Shown: positions 46,709 to 59,859 of the stretch, in pieces | Numbering within the stretch: the stretch's first letter is position 1 | Layout of the letters: every line of letters begins with the position of its first letter | Assembly: GCA_000434675.1 (NCBI GenBank) | Contig: HF988646.1 | Location: 9,712 to 73,711, forward strand | DNA: 64,000 nucleotides | Source of the DNA: Faecalibacterium sp. CAG:1138 | GTDB taxonomy: Bacteria > Bacillota > Clostridia > Christensenellales > CAG-917 | Direction: 5' to 3' | Notes under the pieces: model-generated | What the model was told of the DNA's origin: nothing | The model's input: the letters and a program-made list of their open reading frames with translations, nothing else | The model's database searches: none | Made by a program: the position numbers and the translations under genes

Positions 46709-47485
46709 TTGTTTAACGATTTAGATTTCAAAAAAATATTTCCTCTAATGACTTTTGAAAGCGGCGAAGAAGAAACGTGCAGAAAGTATATGGAAACGAG
46801 AGGAATATATCTTTATAAGCAAGTTTATGATGCGTTAGCTACTTGGATGCCTAATGTTAAAGAAATCAAATATAAACAATTTTCAAATTTGATTCGATAC
46901 GATAAGGGAATAAGGGATAAACTATATATTTATCTTGCTGCGGCGGAAGAATATCTGCGCAATATTATATTTGAAGAATTAGAAATAGATAATCGTCCCC
47001 AAGACAGTACTAAAATTAAACTTAATATTAGTGATTTAAGGACAAGAACTGTAGAGGAGCGAAATGAAGAATCGAATTTATATTATTACTCTTACGCAAA
47101 GAATTTTGATTTTGGACTGATTGAGAAAGTCTTTCAAAAGTTCAAACTTGCCGAAAAGTATGGCTTGATTCAATCGGATATTAAAGAAGTTCGGAAATTA
47201 TTGAGAAACAAAGTAATGCATCATAGCATGTTACTGTTATCTTGTTTTACGGATCGACAAGACATAGAAAAAGAAATAAAAACACTTGAAAAAGGCGTAG
47301 AAGCGTTGTATAGATTATTGCCAACATTAGAGCTTCGTGAAGGTTCGTCAGTTGATGGTCGCATTAGCGGCGGTTTAACGCAGGCAATTAACAAAAGCAA
47401 TTATCCTGATGGAGATATTATGAAAAAGCCGTATGATAACATAATTTGTTTACACAAGTTCAAAGACGGGAGATTTATATTATAA
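46709..47485 (+). CDS. Abi2 (AbiD/AbiF)-like HEPN-domain protein
   Basis: LIRYDKGIRDKLYIYLAAAEEYLRNIIF and the Rx4H motif RNKVMH (47204-47221) match the Abi_2/HEPN pattern. TTG start with an AGAGGT SD; ATG 46748 is an alternative start. Confidence 0.65.
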   Translation: MFNDLDFKKIFPLMTFESGEEETCRKYMETRGIYLYKQVYDALATWMPNVKEIKYKQFSNLIRYDKGIRDKLYIYLAAAEEYLRNIIFEELEIDNRPQDSTKIKLNISDLRTRTVEERNEESNLYYYSYAKNFDFGLIEKVFQKFKLAEKYGLIQSDIKEVRKLLRNKVMHHSMLLLSCFTDRQDIEKEIKTLEKGVEALYRLLPTLELREGSSVDGRISGGLTQAINKSNYPDGDIMKKPYDNIICLHKFKDGRFIL

Positions 47486-48144
47486 TGGAATATTTACATA
47501 GGAAAGACAAAAAGAAAACTTCAGCGCGAGAAGATTTTGAGAAAAGATTATTGCCGAAAGTGAGAGAATATTTGCGGAAAGATTTCGGTAAAAAGAAATG
47601 GGTGTTTAATGAATCCCTTGTCGGTAGTACAAAACGCAATTTAGTCTTGGTTGGGAACGAAGGCTTTGATATGGATTACCAATTACGGTTCGATTGTATT
47701 CCAGATAAATACTTAAAAGATGCCAAAGCTATGAAAGAATTGTTTCGAAATTATTTAAATAAAGCAAAGAAAGAACTCGGAATAGCCTTGACAGATTGCG
47801 AAGATTCTACACATGTGCTTACGATGAAGAAAATAGTTAATACAAAAGTTGATTATTCGTATGATATAGCAATTTTACGATTAAATGAATGCGGACAATA
47901 TGTAATTTTGAAGAATGAAAAGCAAGGCAGACAAGATGATTATCATTATGTACCGTTACCTGATTGTGGAGATTTTAACGAACGGTATAAAAAAGTGAAA
48001 ACTCAAGAAGCGTGGGCGTTGTTACGTGATAAATATAAAGTTAAAAAAGGAAAATATCAATACACAAATCAAGATGATAGACCTGCTTCATTTTCATTAC
48101 TGGGACAGGCGGTAAATGAAGTTATACAGAAATTAGAACTGTGA
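47485..48144 (+). CDS. Minimal Pol-beta-superfamily nucleotidyltransferase (MNT-like)
   Basis: G-S (47623-47628), 13 residues, then D-M-D (47668-47676), with a later YSYDIAIL strand carrying the third Asp. The ATG overlaps the upstream TAA (TAATG). Confidence 0.6.
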   Translation: MEYLHRKDKKKTSAREDFEKRLLPKVREYLRKDFGKKKWVFNESLVGSTKRNLVLVGNEGFDMDYQLRFDCIPDKYLKDAKAMKELFRNYLNKAKKELGIALTDCEDSTHVLTMKKIVNTKVDYSYDIAILRLNECGQYVILKNEKQGRQDDYHYVPLPDCGDFNERYKKVKTQEAWALLRDKYKVKKGKYQYTNQDDRPASFSLLGQAVNEVIQKLEL

Positions 48145-48235: not shown

Positions 48236-49891
48236 CTACGGCGATGAGCGAAGAAACGACAAAAAGGGTAAACTGCCATAAAAACGGCAATTTACCCCTG
48301 TTTTGCATAGAAAAAGACACACGCGTCGGAGTTTTATACGCTCCTTTTGCGTGTGTCTTGATGGTGCCGTGTGGCATAATTTGTACGAACCTGTGTTAGA
48401 AGAAATAGCGGTTTTATCCGCCGTTTCTATTTCGCTTTCCGTTTTTGTGACGTGTTCTTTTGTTAATTTCAAGTGTTCGGGGCAGTCTGTAAAGTTGTAT
48501 GTAATCACTATCTCATCGTCATAAAGTATTACTTCCCGTATAAACGCATTAACAATTAGTTTCCGCACTTTTATATCGTCCGTGTTATCAAACACAAATT
48601 TACTCAAATACATTTCTATATCGTCCGCAGTTAAGTATGTGTAACTGCGGGCTTTTTCTTTAAGGATTTCCACGTCGTATTGCGATATTAGATTTTCAAG
48701 TTCGGTCAGACGGCTTTTCGTCGTTTCGGTGATTATGCCTTGCTCGATTGCCTTTACGATATTATTCTGTGCCTTTACCGCCTCGGCGCGTTTCTTTTCA
48801 ATAAATTTCAAAGCCGTGTTGTCTGCGGTTTCTTTTTTATGTACGTTGTATATGCTTTGCGCAATCTTCTTGATATTGTTCACGCTCGATAACATTTGAG
48901 TCGTTGCGTTTATCACCGTATCTTCGATAAACTGTTTTTGCACTCTGCCCATATTACATTTAGCACGCTTGCGACGTTTTGAAAGGCAAATATAGTAGTA
49001 ATGAATTGCACCCGTATGAGAAGTTCCGCTTTCACCGCCCATTCTGTGCTTACAATCTCCGCATATAAGTTTTCCCGAAAGGATATAGTCGAAAATCTCT
49101 TTTTTACGGCTCGGCGCAAGTTTGTTTTCTTCGTTTATTGCATTTACCTTGTTCCAAAGTTCGTCGGATATAATCCTCGGAAAGATGTTATCGTATGATT
49201 CCCCTTGGTGTTCGACAACGCCGGTATATCTCTTGTTGTGCAGAATGAAATACAAGTATTTGTGGTCTACGAGTTTTCCGTTCTTTCTGCGACAACCGCA
49301 TTCCTTGAATTTATCCGCAATGGCAACTGCTTTGTAGCCCTGCGAATACATCAAAAACGCATCTTCCACGATTTTGCTTTCGTATTCGTTCACAACGTAT
49401 TTTTTGTCAACGACGTCATAGCCGAAAATGTCTTGTCCACCCGTGGCTTTGCCTTTGCGCCAACTCTCTTTCAGTCCGCGATTGACTTTTTGCGTAAGTT
49501 CTTCCGAAAAGTATTGATTAAAACCTTCCAAAACGGTTTCCATCATACGACCTTCGGGGCTGTCCGTAAGGTTTTCCATTGCAGAGAGAATTGTTACGCC
49601 GTTATCTCGGAGCGTCTTCTTGTGTATTATCGATTCAAACTTGTTACGAGAAAATCGATCAAGTTTGTAAACGATAAGGTACTGCCACTCTTTGCGGCTG
49701 CTGTCTTTCAGCATTTTTTGAAATGCGACACGGTTGTCGTTCGTTCCCGTCATAGCGCGGTCGATATAGGTATCGACTATGAGTATATCGTTGTTTTGAG
49801 CATACTCTCGACACACACGAAGTTGTCCTTCAATAGATTGTTCGGTTTGGCTATCGCTAGAATAACGGGCATAAATAATTGCTTTTTTCAT
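48236..49891 (-). CDS. Large serine recombinase
   Basis: Resolvase domain AIIYARYSSDSQ...YKLDRFSRN, followed by recombinase and zinc-ribbon regions (CGDCKHRM...C). The last ~40 codons lie beyond a terminator-like hairpin, so the 3' end is uncertain. Confidence 0.9.
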   Translation of the reverse strand: MKKAIIYARYSSDSQTEQSIEGQLRVCREYAQNNDILIVDTYIDRAMTGTNDNRVAFQKMLKDSSRKEWQYLIVYKLDRFSRNKFESIIHKKTLRDNGVTILSAMENLTDSPEGRMMETVLEGFNQYFSEELTQKVNRGLKESWRKGKATGGQDIFGYDVVDKKYVVNEYESKIVEDAFLMYSQGYKAVAIADKFKECGCRRKNGKLVDHKYLYFILHNKRYTGVVEHQGESYDNIFPRIISDELWNKVNAINEENKLAPSRKKEIFDYILSGKLICGDCKHRMGGESGTSHTGAIHYYYICLSKRRKRAKCNMGRVQKQFIEDTVINATTQMLSSVNNIKKIAQSIYNVHKKETADNTALKFIEKKRAEAVKAQNNIVKAIEQGIITETTKSRLTELENLISQYDVEILKEKARSYTYLTADDIEMYLSKFVFDNTDDIKVRKLIVNAFIREVILYDDEIVITYNFTDCPEHLKLTKEHVTKTESEIETADKTAISSNTGSYKLCHTAPSRHTQKERIKLRRVCLFLCKTGVNCRFYGSLPFLSFLRSSP

Positions 49892-50150
49892 TTTGGTTAT
49901 TAACTCCTTTTAATTTTTTTGTCTTTCGACGGAAACCGAACAATCCGATTTTGGCGAACACAGCAAGGAAACAGTAAAAAATATAGGGAAATTTTTTGTG
50001 TCTTTATAGTTCTCACTATATTTTTTACCCTTGCGGTGGCTCGATTTGTGTTTGCATACATAAAAGTTTTCAGACCGAAATCGGATAGGCTTTCCGCGAG
50101 AAAGAAAAAACGTCTTGTTTCTTCCTTGTCCACAAGACTACAAGCCAAAG

Positions 50151-50167
50151 TCGCAAGTTTTTTGCGA
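50151..50167. promoter_or_regulatory. Palindromic operator-like site TCGCAA-N5-TTGCGA (copy 1)
   Basis: Exact 6-bp inverted arms with a 5-bp spacer, followed by GTTCGA. Confidence 0.5.
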
Positions 50168-50211
50168 GTTCGACTGAAATTTTCCAAAAAAATGAAAAAA
50201 ATTATTCAAAG

Positions 50212-50228
50212 TCGCAAGAAAGTTGCGA
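50212..50228. promoter_or_regulatory. Palindromic operator-like site TCGCAA-N5-TTGCGA (copy 2)
   Basis: Same arms and spacing, 61 bp after copy 1, followed by GTTTGA. Confidence 0.5.
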
Positions 50229-50267
50229 GTTTGACCGCTATCCTTTGGGCAAAAAGGAGAAACGGCT

Positions 50268-50456
50268 ATGAACAAGCAATATAAAATAACCACAATCGGC
50301 ACTCCGAACATTGAAAAGATGTCAACGGCGGAACAAAAATCGTTTTACAGCACTCTACTGTCTTTAATGACGGAATACTTCCGCAATGATGCCGAAGCAA
50401 AAAGCACAAACGCCCCCGACTGCTCCGAAAATGCAAACGACATAAACTCGGGGTAA
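50268..50456 (+). CDS. Small hypothetical protein (62 aa) of the island
   Basis: AAAGGAGA SD 7 nt upstream of the ATG. No recognisable domain. Confidence 0.4.
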   Translation: MNKQYKITTIGTPNIEKMSTAEQKSFYSTLLSLMTEYFRNDAEAKSTNAPDCSENANDINSG

Positions 50457-50632
50457 AATGAAAGTCCACGCACGGCGGAGAAAAAGGCGAAAGATCGCCA
50501 AGCGGGTTAGCGGCGACTTCGCCTTCCGCCCGTGCTTTCATTGTCCGATTTAGGTTTGTTTGTTCGGACAGAGGCGTGGCTTGTCTTCGGCGAGGCGCAG
50601 CCGAGCCGACTTGTATCAAGACAAACCACGCC
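50457..50632. ncRNA. Candidate structured RNA or DNA element: three consecutive GC-rich hairpins (family unknown)
   Basis: Hairpin 1 spans 50457-50542 with nested stems AATGAAAG/CTTTCATT, GCACGGCGGA/TCCGCCCGTGC, AGGCGAA/TTCGCCT and TCGCC/GGCGA. Hairpin 2 is TGTCCGA/TCGGACA (50542-50570). Hairpin 3 is GGCGTGGCTTGTCTT/AAGACAAACCACGCC (50573-50632). The strand is unresolved. Confidence 0.35.
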
Positions 50633-50644
50633 TAATTGCCAACG

Positions 50645-50661
50645 TCGCAAAAACCTTGCGA
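50645..50661. promoter_or_regulatory. Palindromic operator-like site TCGCAA-N5-TTGCGA (copy 3)
   Basis: Same arms and spacing, 47 bp upstream of the integrase ATG. Confidence 0.5.
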
Positions 50662-50707
50662 GTTTGAAAATTTGAAAAATCAATTAAAAATCATAGGAGA
50701 ATAAAAA

Positions 50708-51634
50708 ATGAAATATATAGAATGGCTGAATATTTGGCTTAACAATTACATAAAGCCAAGCGCAAAAGGACGCACATACATTCGTTATGAGCAACTAATA
50801 CGAACCCACATTGCCCCGAAAATCGGTGGTAACGACATAAACGACCTTACGCCTATCGTTTTGCAATCGTTTGTTACGGAATTATTGAATAGCGGTAATC
50901 TGAAAACCGGCAAAGAGTTATCGGCAAACTTTGTAAATATGGTCATATCTGTTATTCAGAACTCATTGAAAACGGCGCATTTAGTAGGTATCGCAAACGA
51001 ATATGTGGCAAACAAAATAAAACGCCCCAAGACAAAGGAAAAGCAAGTCGAATGTTTTTCCTGCCAGGAGCAGAAGAAAATTGAAAATTATGTATTGAAT
51101 AATGGCAAAGATAAATTATTCGGTGTTGTTTTATGCCTTTACACGGGTTTACGCATCGGCGAACTGCTCGCTTTAACGTGGGGCGATATTGATTTCGGCA
51201 ATGGTTTGCTTTTCGTTTCAAAAACGTGCCACGACGGAAACGACGGTATAAATCATATCCGCATCATCGACAGCCCGAAAACCGTTCATTCCCGCAGGGT
51301 AATACCGTTGCCGAAACAAATATTGTCCTTGCTTAAAGGCGTAAAAAAGCGTTCCAAATGCGAATATATCATAGCCGATAGCGATAAGCCCGTGTTCGTG
51401 CGCTCGTATCAACGAACTTTTGAACTACTATTGAAAAAACTAAACATTCCACATAAAGGCTTTCACTCCTTACGCCATACGTTCGCTACCCGTGCAATGG
51501 AATGTGGAATGGACGTTAAAACTCTTTCGGAACTGTTAGGACATAAAAATGCAACGATTACGCTTAACCGATATGCTCATTCCTTGCTTGAACACAAGGT
51601 AGATATGATGAATAGATTAGGAAAGTTGTTATAA
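50708..51634 (+). CDS. Tyrosine-type site-specific recombinase/integrase
   Basis: SAM-like N-terminal domain plus the catalytic residues: R in GLRIGELLAL, HSLRHTFAT, and Y in LNRYAH. Confidence 0.9.
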   Translation: MKYIEWLNIWLNNYIKPSAKGRTYIRYEQLIRTHIAPKIGGNDINDLTPIVLQSFVTELLNSGNLKTGKELSANFVNMVISVIQNSLKTAHLVGIANEYVANKIKRPKTKEKQVECFSCQEQKKIENYVLNNGKDKLFGVVLCLYTGLRIGELLALTWGDIDFGNGLLFVSKTCHDGNDGINHIRIIDSPKTVHSRRVIPLPKQILSLLKGVKKRSKCEYIIADSDKPVFVRSYQRTFELLLKKLNIPHKGFHSLRHTFATRAMECGMDVKTLSELLGHKNATITLNRYAHSLLEHKVDMMNRLGKLL

Positions 51635-51643
51635 ATCATAAAC

Positions 51644-51841
51644 AAAAAGTGTGCATCAAACAAAATAATTGATGCACACTTTTTAATTATTATAGCAAAT
51701 TTTTCTGCAAAAATCAAGGCGTATTGACTGCTTGTGCATGAATTGTTGTGATATTGCCGTTTTTTTTGATGCACGTTCAAGCCAAATGCGTACACGGAAT
51801 ATTTTGATTGATGCACTATCAGTGGCTGAAAAGTGCATCAA
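51644..51841. repeat. Five copies of a TTGATGCAC motif in both orientations between the integrase gene and the downstream operon
   Basis: GTGCATCAA at 51651-51659 and 51833-51841. TTGATGCAC at 51669-51677, 51766-51774 and 51808-51816. The first pair also forms the integrase terminator hairpin (51644-51684). Confidence 0.6.
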
Positions 51842-58782: not shown

Positions 58783-59406
58783 TTAAAAGCGATTTGTTGC
58801 AAGCAAATATTTTTTACGAATACTGTTTTGTCTGCGCCAGATTGTAGTGCGGTTGACGTTTAATATTCTGCCGATTTGTAGCATTGTAAACCCTGCCATA
58901 AGAATGGAAAGCGTTTCGTATTCAGCGGCGGTGAGTTTCATCTTTGATATAAGCCCGTCAACGGCTATATAATCGTTTTTCTGCTCGTCATCGAGTATTG
59001 TTTCAGACTCACTCGTAATTCGCTCGTCAAGGCTTATTGTGTTTGCCATATAGCGTGTGTATTGCTTTTGCAAATAATTATCGGCGCAACGATAACAAGC
59101 ACTTTTAATTGTAACAACCTTTCCGTATTTCGTAGTATAGTTATCACCGAGTTTCTCACCTATATGTTGGCAAAGAAACAGCATTGCCTCTTGCGCAATG
59201 TCGTATGCGTTTGAAAACGGCGAATAATCGTCTTTTGAGCGATTCATATCTCTAAATAGCCCTTTGTATAGATAATGCAAATCCTTGCCTGAACGGACGA
59301 TTACTGTTTTAATACAGGTCAAGGCGATAACTTCGCCCATTTTCTGTACGTTTTCTGCCGAGATAACCATATCGTTATCCAAAATGCCTTTGTTTACTTC
59401 TTTCAT
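58783..59406 (-). CDS. Sigma-70 region-4/LuxR-type HTH regulator typical of integrative elements
   Basis: C-terminal LTAAEYETLSILMAGFTMLQIGRILNVNRTTIWRRQNSIRKK. GGAGG SD. Confidence 0.6.
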   Translation of the reverse strand: MKEVNKGILDNDMVISAENVQKMGEVIALTCIKTVIVRSGKDLHYLYKGLFRDMNRSKDDYSPFSNAYDIAQEAMLFLCQHIGEKLGDNYTTKYGKVVTIKSACYRCADNYLQKQYTRYMANTISLDERITSESETILDDEQKNDYIAVDGLISKMKLTAAEYETLSILMAGFTMLQIGRILNVNRTTIWRRQNSIRKKYLLATNRF

Positions 59407-59772
59407 TGTATTTTACCTCCGATTTAATTCGCCTTTCGGCAAAAACGGAAGTAGCACCGGGGAAAGATAGAAGTTTTTTACCTTATAGTTGGTTAGACGG
59501 AAGTCAACGAACAGCAAAAAATATTACGTTATAATCGACAATTTCAAAGTTTTCGGTAAAAATTTTTGCCGTTGACTTGCGCTTTTCACTGTGCTACAAA
59601 CGTAAACGAAAGGCGATAAATCGGACGGCAAAACGGTATAGAAAAACCGAGCGTTTAGAACACTCGGTTAAAGGTTGTAATGTATTTATAGTTTGATTTT
59701 AAGTCCGAAATAATCTCTTGTAAAAAACAAAACGAACTCAAGATTTTTTCTCGGGTTCGTTTTATTCTTGTT

Positions 59773-59859
59773 TGGTGCGGGCAACAGGACTTGAACCTGC
59801 ACAGCCTTGCGACCATAAGAACCTGAATCTTACGCGTCTGCCAATTCCGCCATGCCCGC
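59773..59859 (-). tRNA. tRNA-Leu (anticodon CAG), class II with a long variable arm
   Basis: Minus-strand sequence GCGGGCATGGCGGAATTGGCAGACGCGTAAGATTCAGGTTCTTATGGTCGCAAGGCTGTGCAGGTTCAAGTCCTGTTGCCCGCACCA was folded by hand. The anticodon loop is TTCAGGT. Confidence 0.9.

Follow-up and report, generated by a model that had tools for sequence, protein, structure and literature searches.

In rolling-circle (RCR) plasmids the single-strand origin is typically located just upstream of the double-strand origin, and in the intergenic region of the Ff filamentous phages a packaging hairpin is followed by the minus-strand origin and then by the plus-strand origin. Single-strand origins of the ssoA type carry a CS-6 sequence (TAGCGT) in a terminal loop and an RSB box (TTATGCCGAGAAAATTT-like) (PMC4598088). 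Mini-hairpins of the GCGNAGC type are found in DNA at the sites that prime the conversion of single to double strands in phages G4, St-1 and alpha3 and in ssiA, and the RNA version of this mini-hairpin is much less stable (PMC13037366). Among integrated elements, IMEs with RCR-type relaxases (PHA00330, Rep_2, Rep_trans) and TcpA coupling proteins are known, as is a single-strand origin in ICEBs1 (PMC5704250; PMC4595007). The element described here, a block of three hairpins in the window (the whole 64-kb stretch of DNA that was analysed), can be compared with each of these systems. With moderate confidence, we interpret it as a cis-acting DNA region that serves as the origin (or as an oriT-like site) for integrated rolling-circle Rep elements of one family, and not as an RNA gene. 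The Rep-bearing family is large, undescribed and found in gut Clostridia, and the copy in the window sits in a defence island.

The element is present as one copy in the window, at 50457-50632. As an earlier, sequence-only reading of this DNA had described, it is a GC-rich triple hairpin within AT-rich DNA (G+C is 57% in hairpin 1 versus ~0.33-0.44 in the surrounding island), and it folds better than shuffled controls both as RNA (z -5.1) and as DNA (z -7.3). None of 200 shuffles folded as well as the RNA of either the plus strand (50440-50650, -90.1 kcal/mol, z -5.14) or the minus strand (-90.0 kcal/mol, z -5.26, same interval), and the DNA fold of 50455-50635 has an energy of -50.9 kcal/mol (z -7.25). 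Hairpin 1 (50457-50542, plus strand) is a long imperfect rod of ~30 bp in both the RNA and the DNA folds, as first described, with five nested helices (four in the sequence-only reading) and an additional 2-bp apical helix. Its conserved tip consists of an AA bulge, GC, the hexaloop GGKTYA and GC, and the stretch at 50500-50512 reads AAGCGGGTTAGCG. A G+T-rich spacer with an ATTTAG-type motif (50543-50572, plus strand) follows, which in the lineage of the window forms hairpin 2 (GTCCGA...TCGGAC, 50543-50569, plus strand) with a stem of 6-7 bp and a 15-nt loop, essentially as first drawn. In hairpin 3 (50573-50632, plus strand) the outer stem, formed by pairing of 50573-50585 with 50620-50632, comprises 13 bp. 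The inner stem is capped in the window by the mini-hairpin GCGCAGC (50595-50601), and a 3' bulge of 9-11 nt (CTTGTATCAA, 50610-50619) is unpaired and nearly invariant.

Hairpin 1 begins 1 nt past the end of a small ORF of 62 aa (50268-50456, plus strand). The exact 62-aa protein is encoded on at least 22 contigs, always beside a serine recombinase and the element. In the window this large serine recombinase (551 aa, 48236-49891, minus strand; Pfam Resolvase, Recombinase and Zn_ribbon_recom) is divergent from the small ORF, and the conserved block that includes it starts sharply at 48362, with the same boundary in six loci. Downstream of the element lies the gene for a tyrosine recombinase of 308 aa (50708-51634, plus strand; Pfam Phage_integrase and Phage_int_SAM_3), previously noted as an integrase. 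A 166-bp segment 3' of this gene is inverted in sister contigs, and the enzyme seems to operate an invertible switch there. The TCGCAA-N5-TTGCGA sites that were said to flank the element are indeed present, in three copies. Palindromes 1 (TCGCAAGTTTTTTGCGA, 50151-50167) and 2 (TCGCAAGAAAGTTGCGA, 50212-50228) are located on the plus strand 5' of the small ORF and are probably operators; loci of the L005 type have the element but neither of these palindromes, which in other lineages do not belong to it. Palindrome 3 (TCGCAAAAACCTTGCGA, 50645-50661, plus strand) is operator-like and lies just 5' of a promoter-like site for the tyrosine recombinase gene (TTGAAA-16-AAAAAT, 50664-50691, plus strand). 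It forms part of a 3' flank (50633-50667, plus strand) in which a conserved TAATTGCCAAC precedes the palindrome and GTTTGA follows it, and this block is kept up to GAGTTTGAA even where different cargo follows (L128 and L131). A tRNA-derived direct repeat was sought at the ends of the island and none was found.

Hairpins 1 and 3 are kept with heavy compensatory change in ~80 related loci. A covariance model of hairpin 1, seeded with the window copy and one near-identical relative (L003), gave full-length matches in 78 loci, all on the Rep strand apart from one inverted copy. Within these matches 93.9% of cells pair and 29 of the 32 pairs show changes on both sides, counts that are inflated by the fitting of the alignment to the structure by the covariance model; the observed score was reached by none of 500 shuffles. 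With RNAalifold and an ordinary MAFFT alignment of hairpin 1, no helix other than the apical one emerged, since the lower stems were out of register; the covariance model overcame this problem. In hairpin 3, for which a MAFFT alignment (A2) of 42 distinct copies was used, 91.7% of cells pair and nine pairs change on both sides, a number again reached by 0/500 shuffles. The most conserved stretch of this alignment is CTYGTATCAAGACAAG, and the unpaired CTYGTATCAA is nearly invariant among the copies. The tip of hairpin 3 reads GCGNAGC in 34 of the distinct copies and GCGNNAGC in six more (40/42), with N free and the G and A fixed. The covariation that had been suggested as a check on the fold was thus found in hairpins 1 and 3 but not in hairpin 2, the structure of which is restricted to the lineage of the window: the spacers of 55 distinct relatives, which range from 22 to 135 nt with 50-82% G+T, have no common hairpin, and a loose ATTT(C/A)AGTCGG-like motif recurs in them.

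In these relatives the element is located directly 3' of the stop codon of a gene encoding an HUH rolling-circle Rep of 330-350 aa (Pfam PF23343). For example, the gene just 5' of the element in L005, L026 and L030 matches PF23343 REP_ORF2-G2P, a family named after the filamentous and plectrovirus Reps, and its product contains HFHG and Y-x-x-K-Y-x-x-K motifs. Among the 71 Rep loci with enough downstream sequence, hairpin 1 lies no more than 150 nt from the stop codon in 54 (median 30 nt) and hairpin 3 within 330 nt in 60, and in most of the remaining Rep loci the element is shifted by 0.4-2.2 kb by inserted genes. With the single exception of the inverted copy, its orientation relative to Rep is fixed. 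Hairpin 3 marks the end of conservation; the cargo that immediately follows is variable and consists mostly of defence genes. A conserved non-coding region that follows Rep in ~60/71 related loci makes a component of a mobility system the best supported of the functions proposed in the sequence-only reading. The position of the element between a small ORF and an integrase gene, which the same reading had noted, is correct for the window but incidental, as relatives have the small ORF plus Rep in this place.

The window itself is without Rep, as judged by tblastn of Rep against the entire 64 kb, and the adjacency to Rep expected of a double-strand origin is consequently missing from this copy. 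In L055 and L118 the gene order is a 76-aa ORF (MKEQYQK...), Rep, the element and the recombinase, and the stretch from the recombinase to the restriction gene is 88-90% identical to the window; L118 is 90% identical over this stretch and carries both Rep and the element. Judged only by its position and a shared MN/KxQY N-terminus, the 62-aa ORF of the window seems to correspond, in diverged form, to the 76-aa ORF upstream of Rep. Hairpin 1 of the window is 82-93% identical to the copies of the Rep-bearing loci L005, L045, L047, L055 and L073, which score 63-87 bits against the window-based model. From these comparisons, the Rep gene is evidently lost from the island in the window while the origin has been kept, leaving what we regard as an orphan origin. 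One base pair is gone from both arms of hairpin 3 together in the Rep-less lineage, and both sides of the inner stem are changed in L003. These paired changes suggest that selection persists without Rep, which we count in favour of an origin, although a Rep-less copy kept for another reason, for example as a recombination site, would look alike.

If the element is an origin, the initiator would be an HUH Rep of the phiX174 gpA type that starts rolling-circle replication or transfer, and the processed strand would be the plus strand. Hairpin 3 would extrude and so expose the unpaired CTYGTATCAA beside a conserved stem, where Rep would bind and nick, putatively at one plus-strand bond in or adjoining CTTGTATCAAGAC. 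Hairpin 3, which covaries and exposes a conserved unpaired sequence, is therefore our candidate for the nick-site (double-strand origin) hairpin, and cleavage there is what we infer from this architecture. The location of the nick is a guess, guided by the conservation and by a loose likeness to sites of the CTTG/ATA type (the slash marks the cut). Once displaced, the plus strand would fold into hairpin 1 and, within hairpin 3, the GCGNAGC mini-hairpin. Such folded structures would resist single-strand binding protein, allowing host RNA polymerase or primase to start the complementary strand, and could additionally serve as packaging marks in a relative of phage type. Hairpin 1 is a candidate single-strand (complementary-strand) origin, packaging-type hairpin, or both, and the mini-hairpin of hairpin 3 (GCGNAGC or GCGNNAGC) has the form of a G4/ssiA-type priming signal and may prime in the same manner. 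Since Rep is absent, the origin in the window would work only with Rep provided in trans by a relative resident in the same cell. The island would then be a hitchhiker, similar to mobilizable islands that carry oriT alone.

Covariation suits RNA and DNA pairing equally, and the z-score of -5.1 for the RNA fold would also be compatible with a structured RNA transcribed from the plus strand. Such an RNA might form the 3' UTR of the Rep or small-ORF transcript and terminate or stabilise it, or it might be a processed sRNA that regulates Rep, the recombinase or the cargo. The element starts 1 nt past the stop of the upstream ORF with no promoter between them, so that the message from Rep or the small ORF probably includes it at the 3' end, and the base of hairpin 1, in which an A-rich 5' side faces a T-rich 3' side, is terminator-like. 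However, the T-rich 3' side is interrupted, a terminator scan of 49850-50800 gave no plus-strand match, and simple terminators do not resemble a rod of 30 bp whose tip is conserved in sequence. A search of Rfam 15 returned no match at the gathering score in the window, and even a permissive threshold (E up to 10) yielded only chance-level matches in 50100-50750. G-T cells in hairpin 1 are not in excess of A-C cells (53 versus 53), so that this wobble asymmetry test gives no strand signal, and the GCGNAGC tip is stable as DNA but weak as RNA (PMC13037366). The DNA-type tip of hairpin 3 and the lack of G-T bias in hairpin 1 together favour a structure that acts at the level of plus-strand DNA, and the tight linkage to an HUH Rep is more simply explained by DNA. 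We therefore consider a functional plus-strand RNA unlikely, and the regulatory or antisense RNA originally envisaged finds no backing in the Rfam, wobble and tip-stability results.

A second alternative is that the element, and hairpin 3 above all, serves mainly as a site for site-specific recombination at which the serine recombinase, the tyrosine recombinase or Rep inserts, inverts or swaps cargo. The evidence comes from a breakpoint zone in the 3' arm of hairpin 3 (50620-50625, plus strand), between GAC and AAG(C). In rearranged loci hairpin 3 is joined at this breakpoint to a 21-nt site, GTGTCCATAAAAAYGTGTCAC. State B (L070, L090, L099 and L122-L124) reads ...GTATCAAGAC(A)/GTCACATATTTTTATGGACAC and state D (L011, L021 and L025) reads GTGTCCATAAAAAYGTGTCAC(A)/ACAAGCACACGCC, where the slash marks the joint. 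Contigs in states A and B encode an identical 345-aa Rep and are essentially identical up to the breakpoint (one substitution in L121), and the same Rep is accompanied by differing cargo. The GAC/AAGC breakpoints recur in independent contigs, in each case with the same 21-nt site as partner in one or the other orientation, and ~2 nt (AC) are common to the joint, as expected for a serine recombinase; in L025, an ORF that by eye resembles the C-terminus of a serine recombinase ends just before the 21-nt site. Precedents exist in relaxase-mediated recombination at oriT (PMC5714925) and in IMEs that integrate into the oriT of ICEs (PMC7563843). On the other hand, only ~10 of ~90 copies are rearranged, an unoccupied partner site was never seen, and hairpin 1 and the GNA tip are left unexplained. 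A role as a recombination target would moreover be compatible with an origin and would not replace it. We judge it improbable that recombination is the main role of the element, and the accessory structure for recombination suggested at the outset gains some support from the recurrent 3'-arm breakpoints for hairpin 3 only.

An antisense or regulatory RNA from the minus strand has very little to recommend it. The minus strand folds equally well, and the single C/A mismatch of hairpin 3 on the plus strand, which becomes a G-U pair on the minus strand, had been taken as a hint of minus-strand transcription; but this mismatch rests on an A at 50625 that is private to this lineage, close relatives having G and perfect pairing. 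Furthermore, A-C cells do not exceed G-T cells, the tip becomes GCTNCGC, which has no known stability, and the orientation is fixed relative to Rep. Least credible is the chance insertion of a selfish palindrome of the MITE or REP type, a reading that the GC-rich palindromic block within AT-rich DNA might invite but that we rejected, since the element occurs only once in the 64 kb, keeps its neighbouring genes and orientation across ~80 loci, and shows no target duplications or scattered copies among the sequences seen.

The DNA origin that we favour would derive from a parent element that carries Rep. More than 5,000 relatives of the Rep family are present in public data, and the 120 best-scoring of those listed are all named only "hypothetical protein". 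Neither Rep nor the 62-aa and 76-aa ORFs nor the core proteins were matched in PHROGs, NCBIfam or PDB sequence searches, and in Pfam the only match was that of Rep to PF23343. Viral contigs scanned with two Rep-derived peptide patterns, which detect close relatives only, contained none, and a BLAST search with 50100-50710 found no match in phage and plasmid collections. MT835493.1 ("Bacteriophage sp.") does carry Rep, but it is a chromosomal fragment with an integrated element and no virion evidence, and was discounted. Besides a core protein of 678 aa, the parent elements encode one of 705-709 aa in which N-terminal membrane segments and a P-loop can be read from the sequence. Profiles of TcpA, FtsK and VirD4 all failed to match the latter, and an AlphaFold model of its 709-aa form (pLDDT 33) was of no use, the underlying alignment being shallow and limited to sequences with 88% identity or more. 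Because the core proteins match nothing, the parent element may be read as a phage or as a plasmid-like, conjugative or mobilizable element.

Rep-bearing elements are common in human-gut Clostridia, and their origin is immediately followed by defence genes, restriction and Gabija-like ones among them. We tentatively raise the possibility that hairpin 3 is both the nick site and a docking hub, the preferred place for recombinase-borne defence cassettes to insert, invert or be swapped, that the Rep elements are defence-collecting platforms in gut Clostridia, and that the Rep-less islands are satellites which keep the origin so that a Rep-bearing relative can copy or move them. A defined cis site, with its putative nick site, its mini-hairpin tip and its 30-bp rod that covaries, provides a handle on the replication and movement of these elements, and the Rep-less islands could reveal how defence islands hitch rides on Rep elements. 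For annotation, the element is an example of a strongly covarying structure, probably at the DNA level, that RNA-gene finders could miscall as a non-coding RNA.

The order of the hairpins is the same as that of the origins in RCR plasmids, with hairpin 1 upstream and the nick hairpin downstream. The Ff intergenic region is likewise a short non-coding block by the Rep gene, in which several hairpins follow one another and function on the plus strand when it is single-stranded; the first of them is long, imperfect and ~80 nt. The parent elements differ from Ff phages in that no coat or Zot-like assembly gene was recognised among their core proteins, and a packaging role is pure conjecture. Integron attC sites and the folded attP of CTX phage are also imperfect hairpins with unpaired bases beside a tyrosine recombinase gene, and share with this element adjacent variable cassettes; the breakpoints in the 3' arm (here in ~10 loci, between GAC and AAGC) may be comparable to a crossover within a hairpin stem. 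In contrast to attC, hairpin 3 lacks the GTTRRRY core boxes, the recombinase is of the ordinary Phage_integrase/SAM_3 type and not IntI, only a minority of copies is rearranged, and the short overlap resembles a serine recombinase more.

Like the RCR plasmid and phage origins (ssoA, phiX174, G4), the element is found, in relatives, near the gene of an HUH Rep whose YxxKY motif has two tyrosines, presents a conserved unpaired sequence on one hairpin, and has a long imperfect hairpin of fixed orientation upstream (PMC5714925; PMC4598088); the GCGNAGC mini-hairpin is common to the G4, St-1 and alpha3 priming sites (PMC13037366). It differs in that its sequence matches no described origin, that the replicon is chromosomally integrated and that the window is without Rep. 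Hairpin 1 is, like ssoA, a long imperfect palindrome in one orientation (all but the inverted copy), and the TAGCG common in its tip, GGKTYAGCG(G/T), agrees with CS-6 in 5/6 bases, although the full TAGCGT is rare (L030) and the GC is paired. Membership of the ssoA type was rejected, as the RSB box (TTATGCCGAGAAAATTT-like) is missing from hairpin 1 of the window and of the listed relatives. Like the IMEs and ICEBs1, the elements described here are integrated in Firmicutes, their DNA would be processed by an HUH protein of Rep type, and a single-strand origin would be needed after transfer; the 705-709 aa membrane/P-loop protein of the parent elements does not match the TcpA profile. The mobilizable islands (MGIs) that carry only an oriT have their own recombinases and cargo, no nickase, and a cis site as in nickase-bearing relatives (PMC5704250). 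The gene content of the window is of the same kind, with no Rep, a cis site related to that of Rep elements, and both serine and tyrosine recombinases, and the island might be mobilised in trans. Whereas MGIs mimic the oriT of conjugative elements with MobH-type relaxases (PMC5704250), the partner of the island described here would be an RCR-type Rep.

Re-examination of the sequence confirmed the layout of three hairpins that a sequence-only reading had described at 50457-50632: a rod of ~30 bp (hairpin 1, 50457-50542), a stem of 6-7 bp (hairpin 2, 50543-50569) and hairpin 3 (50573-50632), which has an inner and a 13-bp outer stem and bulges on its 3' side. The region folds far better than dinucleotide shuffles (RNA z-scores of -5.14 for the plus and -5.26 for the minus strand), and its DNA fold reaches -50.9 kcal/mol (z -7.25). 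An Rfam search of the element found nothing. The host island is low in GC (roughly 46.3-59.8 kb of the window) in a genome of ~50% GC. Leftmost in the series of features is a large serine recombinase gene (48236-49891, minus strand), followed by two palindromes (50151-50167 and 50212-50228) and a 62-aa ORF (50268-50456) that ends 1 nt short of hairpin 1. A third palindrome (50645-50661) with a promoter-like site follows the element, and to its right lie a tyrosine recombinase gene (50708-51634), a 353-aa ORF, a 1327-aa ResIII and Eco57I restriction-modification protein and tRNA-Leu (59773-59859). The three TCGCAA-N5-TTGCGA palindromes around the element are real, as had been claimed. In the window the palindromes, TCGCAA-N5-TTGCGA(GTTTGA), stand just 5' of promoter-like sites, and similar ones precede a second Rep gene in locus L124 (12600-12760); they resemble operators at which a single regulator would govern the small-ORF, Rep and cargo promoters.

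Searching species-representative genomes with the tyrosine recombinase yielded 33 close loci, mostly in gut genomes of Christensenellales and other Clostridia, and in six of them the whole block is almost unchanged. In three diverged loci (L005, L026 and L030) hairpins 1 and 3 are recognisable, being heavily substituted with stems preserved through paired changes, and the gene immediately 5' of the element encodes a protein of 334-348 aa that matches Pfam PF23343 (REP_ORF2-G2P). This rolling-circle protein, Rep, carries an HFHG (HUH) motif and a Y-x-x-K-Y-x-x-K motif, the latter being the signature pair of tyrosines known from phiX174 protein A. No Rep gene was found across the window. A metagenome scan with the Rep alignment gave 80 loci, with Rep 52-93% identical to that of L005. 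Among the 71 loci having at least 330 nt past the Rep stop codon, hairpin 1 lies within 150 nt of the stop in 54 (median 30 nt) and hairpin 3 within 330 nt in 60; in most of the remainder the element is shifted 0.4-2.2 kb downstream, behind inserted small genes. A covariance model of hairpin 1, built from the window copy and the near-identical copy in L003, found full-length matches in 78 loci, all on the Rep strand bar one, which is part of an inverted element.

Covariation among homologues upheld hairpins 1 and 3 of the sequence-only reading. For hairpin 3, aligned by plain MAFFT over 42 distinct copies, 91.7% of cells are paired, two-sided changes occur at 9 pairs and the covariation score is 0.122 against 0.038 in shuffles (0/500 as high); sliding the partners by 1-3 columns reduces pairing to 19-50%. 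The corresponding values for hairpin 1, over 60 distinct rows, are 93.9% of cells, 29 of 32 pairs and 0.509 against 0.158 (0/500 as high), which are upper bounds because the model-fitted alignment favours the structure; slid controls (34-50% paired) and an independent RNAalifold apical helix point in the same direction. Hairpin 2 is unconserved; in its place, other lineages carry 22-135 nt of G+T-rich spacer in which an ATTT(C/A)AGTCGG-like motif is loosely kept.

The window island is a Rep-less derivative. The left part of L118, a 242-kb contig, encodes NERD, serine recombinase, Fic, a 76-aa ORF and Rep, then the element, after which come tyrosine recombinase, a 368-aa ORF, the 1327-aa restriction protein, GmrSD, a 225-aa ORF and tRNAs; the window is 90% identical to it from the recombinase to the restriction gene. 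Between serine recombinase and element the window has the palindromes and the 62-aa ORF and nothing else. By its position and a common MN/KxQY start, this ORF looks like the counterpart of the 76-aa ORF. The exact 62-aa protein occurs in at least 22 contigs, each with serine recombinase and element, and the tyrosine recombinase comes next except in L128 and L131, which have other cargo. Pairing is still maintained within the Rep-less lineage: one nucleotide has gone from each arm of hairpin 3 together, and in L003 the inner stem is altered on both sides.

The conserved block (serine recombinase, small ORF and element) has an abrupt left edge at 48362 (TGGTGCCGTGTGGCATAATTTGTACGAACC), shared by six loci whose left flanks are unrelated. 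This edge, probably an attachment junction, lies within the serine recombinase ORF, 42 codons from its 3' end, so that loci differ in the last stretch of the ORF. Left of it, the very low-GC (0.33) DNA at 46709-48144, with an Abi_2-like ORF (a weak Pfam match under the curated cut-off) and a 232-aa ORF, seems to be a separate inserted piece adjoining the island. A 166-bp segment (51651-51816), bounded by inverted repeats (51651-51683 and 51784-51816), lies in the interval from the tyrosine recombinase gene to the 353-aa/1327-aa restriction operon. It is flipped in sister contigs L125 and L126, at 98.8% identity with both flanks collinear, and also in L001, L009 and L037; it looks like an invertible promoter switch that would make the restriction system phase-variable, and the tyrosine recombinase ('integrase') is its likely invertase. 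Further right (58783-59406, minus strand, and 59410-59660) is a 207-aa ORF whose C-terminus resembles sigma-70 region 4 by eye. It has homologues in L118, where the ORF lies at the cargo's far end, and in L070, where it comes immediately after the cut hairpin 3 in opposite orientation; upstream of both is an inverted repeat, CCGAAAAGGC-N7-TTCGGAG, present in diverged form in the window.

Hairpin 3 is full in ~82 copies, and two rearranged states recur. In six loci (L070, L090, L099 and L122-L124) it breaks off after ...GTATCAAGAC(A), beyond which GTCACATATTTTTATGGACAC and other cargo follow. L011, L021 and L025 instead have the reverse complement of that 21-nt site linked to ACAAGCACACGCC and the tyrosine recombinase gene. 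In every case the 21-nt site, GTGTCCATAAAAAYGTGTCAC (L011:77, L025:349, L048:8825, L070:6245(-), L090:6244(-), L099:5681(-) and L122-L124), is attached to one half of hairpin 3 or the other, with both orientations represented; neither a free copy nor an enzyme using it was found. The joints overlap by ~2 nt (AC), and in L025 a serine-recombinase-type ORF, as we read the sequence, terminates just 5' of the site. These features point to site-specific recombination at the 3' arm, and the breakpoint could stem from insertion of an element carrying a recombinase, cargo inversion or Rep-mediated joining at a nick.

Conservation of Rep loci extends several kb 5' of Rep and ends at most ~250 nt 3' of it, at the end of hairpin 3. 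Beyond this point the genes differ even among contigs with an identical 345-aa Rep (L120-L124; cargo from around 11250 (L120-L123) or 3430 (L124) in locus coordinates, corresponding to 50633 onward in the window). One set has PAPS-reductase and DUF7862-64, another is an AAA-peptidase set, and a third combines KilA-N, type I restriction and a Gabija-like OLD/UvrD pair; the same Rep is thus followed by different defence sets, and the origin borders a defence-cargo hotspot. Parent elements of this group, which may be phage-like, plasmid-like or mobilizable, encode WYL and LexA-like regulators, a sigma-like protein and, before Rep, several proteins of 199-709 aa without database match. One, integrated in L133 (MT835493.1, 10000-57236; 'UNVERIFIED: Bacteriophage sp.' in GenBank), has a 474-aa tyrosine integrase at its far end, adjoining host nrdD and trxB, and also contains defence cargo and a UmuC-like gene. 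No virion gene was recognisable among ten large ORFs tested, and L133 is probably a chromosomal fragment.

The simplest account of the element is a cis-acting origin region of a rolling-circle element, in which hairpin 3 would be the nick-site hairpin, while hairpin 1 and the mini-hairpin at the tip of hairpin 3 would enable priming, or packaging, of the displaced plus strand; we infer nicking, priming and use in trans. The element might also act as a plus-strand RNA (a 3' UTR, a terminator or a small RNA), since it is probably transcribed. An RNA helix is expected to accept G-U much more readily than A-C, and hairpin 1 has 53 G-T and 53 A-C cells. At the tip of hairpin 3, 34 of 42 distinct copies read GCGNAGC and 6 read GCGNNAGC, with G and A invariant and N variable, and the motif is on the plus strand only. 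Such tips form extraordinarily stable "mini-hairpin DNA", found at complementary-strand synthesis start points of phages G4, St-1 and alpha3 and at ssiA, and their RNA counterparts are much less stable (Kimoto and Hirao, PMC13037366). It is also possible that hairpin 3 is primarily a recombination site, as the rearranged states might suggest, but this leaves hairpin 1 and the tip motif unexplained. The interpretation in the sequence-only reading is supported in part, its minus-strand RNA being unlikely: the C/A mismatch that had hinted at it reflects a G-to-A substitution at 50625 found only in the window's lineage. The element is present once in the window, and a MITE-like repeat is unlikely.

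We conclude that the element is most likely an unannotated rolling-circle origin or oriT-like region, a variation on an established type of cis element; it is unusual in that one copy is an orphan within a defence island and in that the origin hairpin holds a recombination breakpoint and is a hotspot for cargo. Pairing a double-strand with a single-strand origin is the textbook scheme of RCR plasmids and phages (PMC5714925), and ICEBs1 indicates that integrated elements need a single-strand origin as well (PMC4595007). The tip of hairpin 1 (AA bulge, GC, hexaloop GGKTYA, GC) includes TAGCG, similar to the ssoA-origin CS-6 box, TAGCGT (PMC4598088), but hairpin 1 was not assigned to the ssoA class because the RSB box is absent from it. 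The putative origin in the window is an orphan, and its nearest known parallel is provided by islands that are mobilizable through an oriT alone, with the nickase supplied by a helper (PMC5704250).
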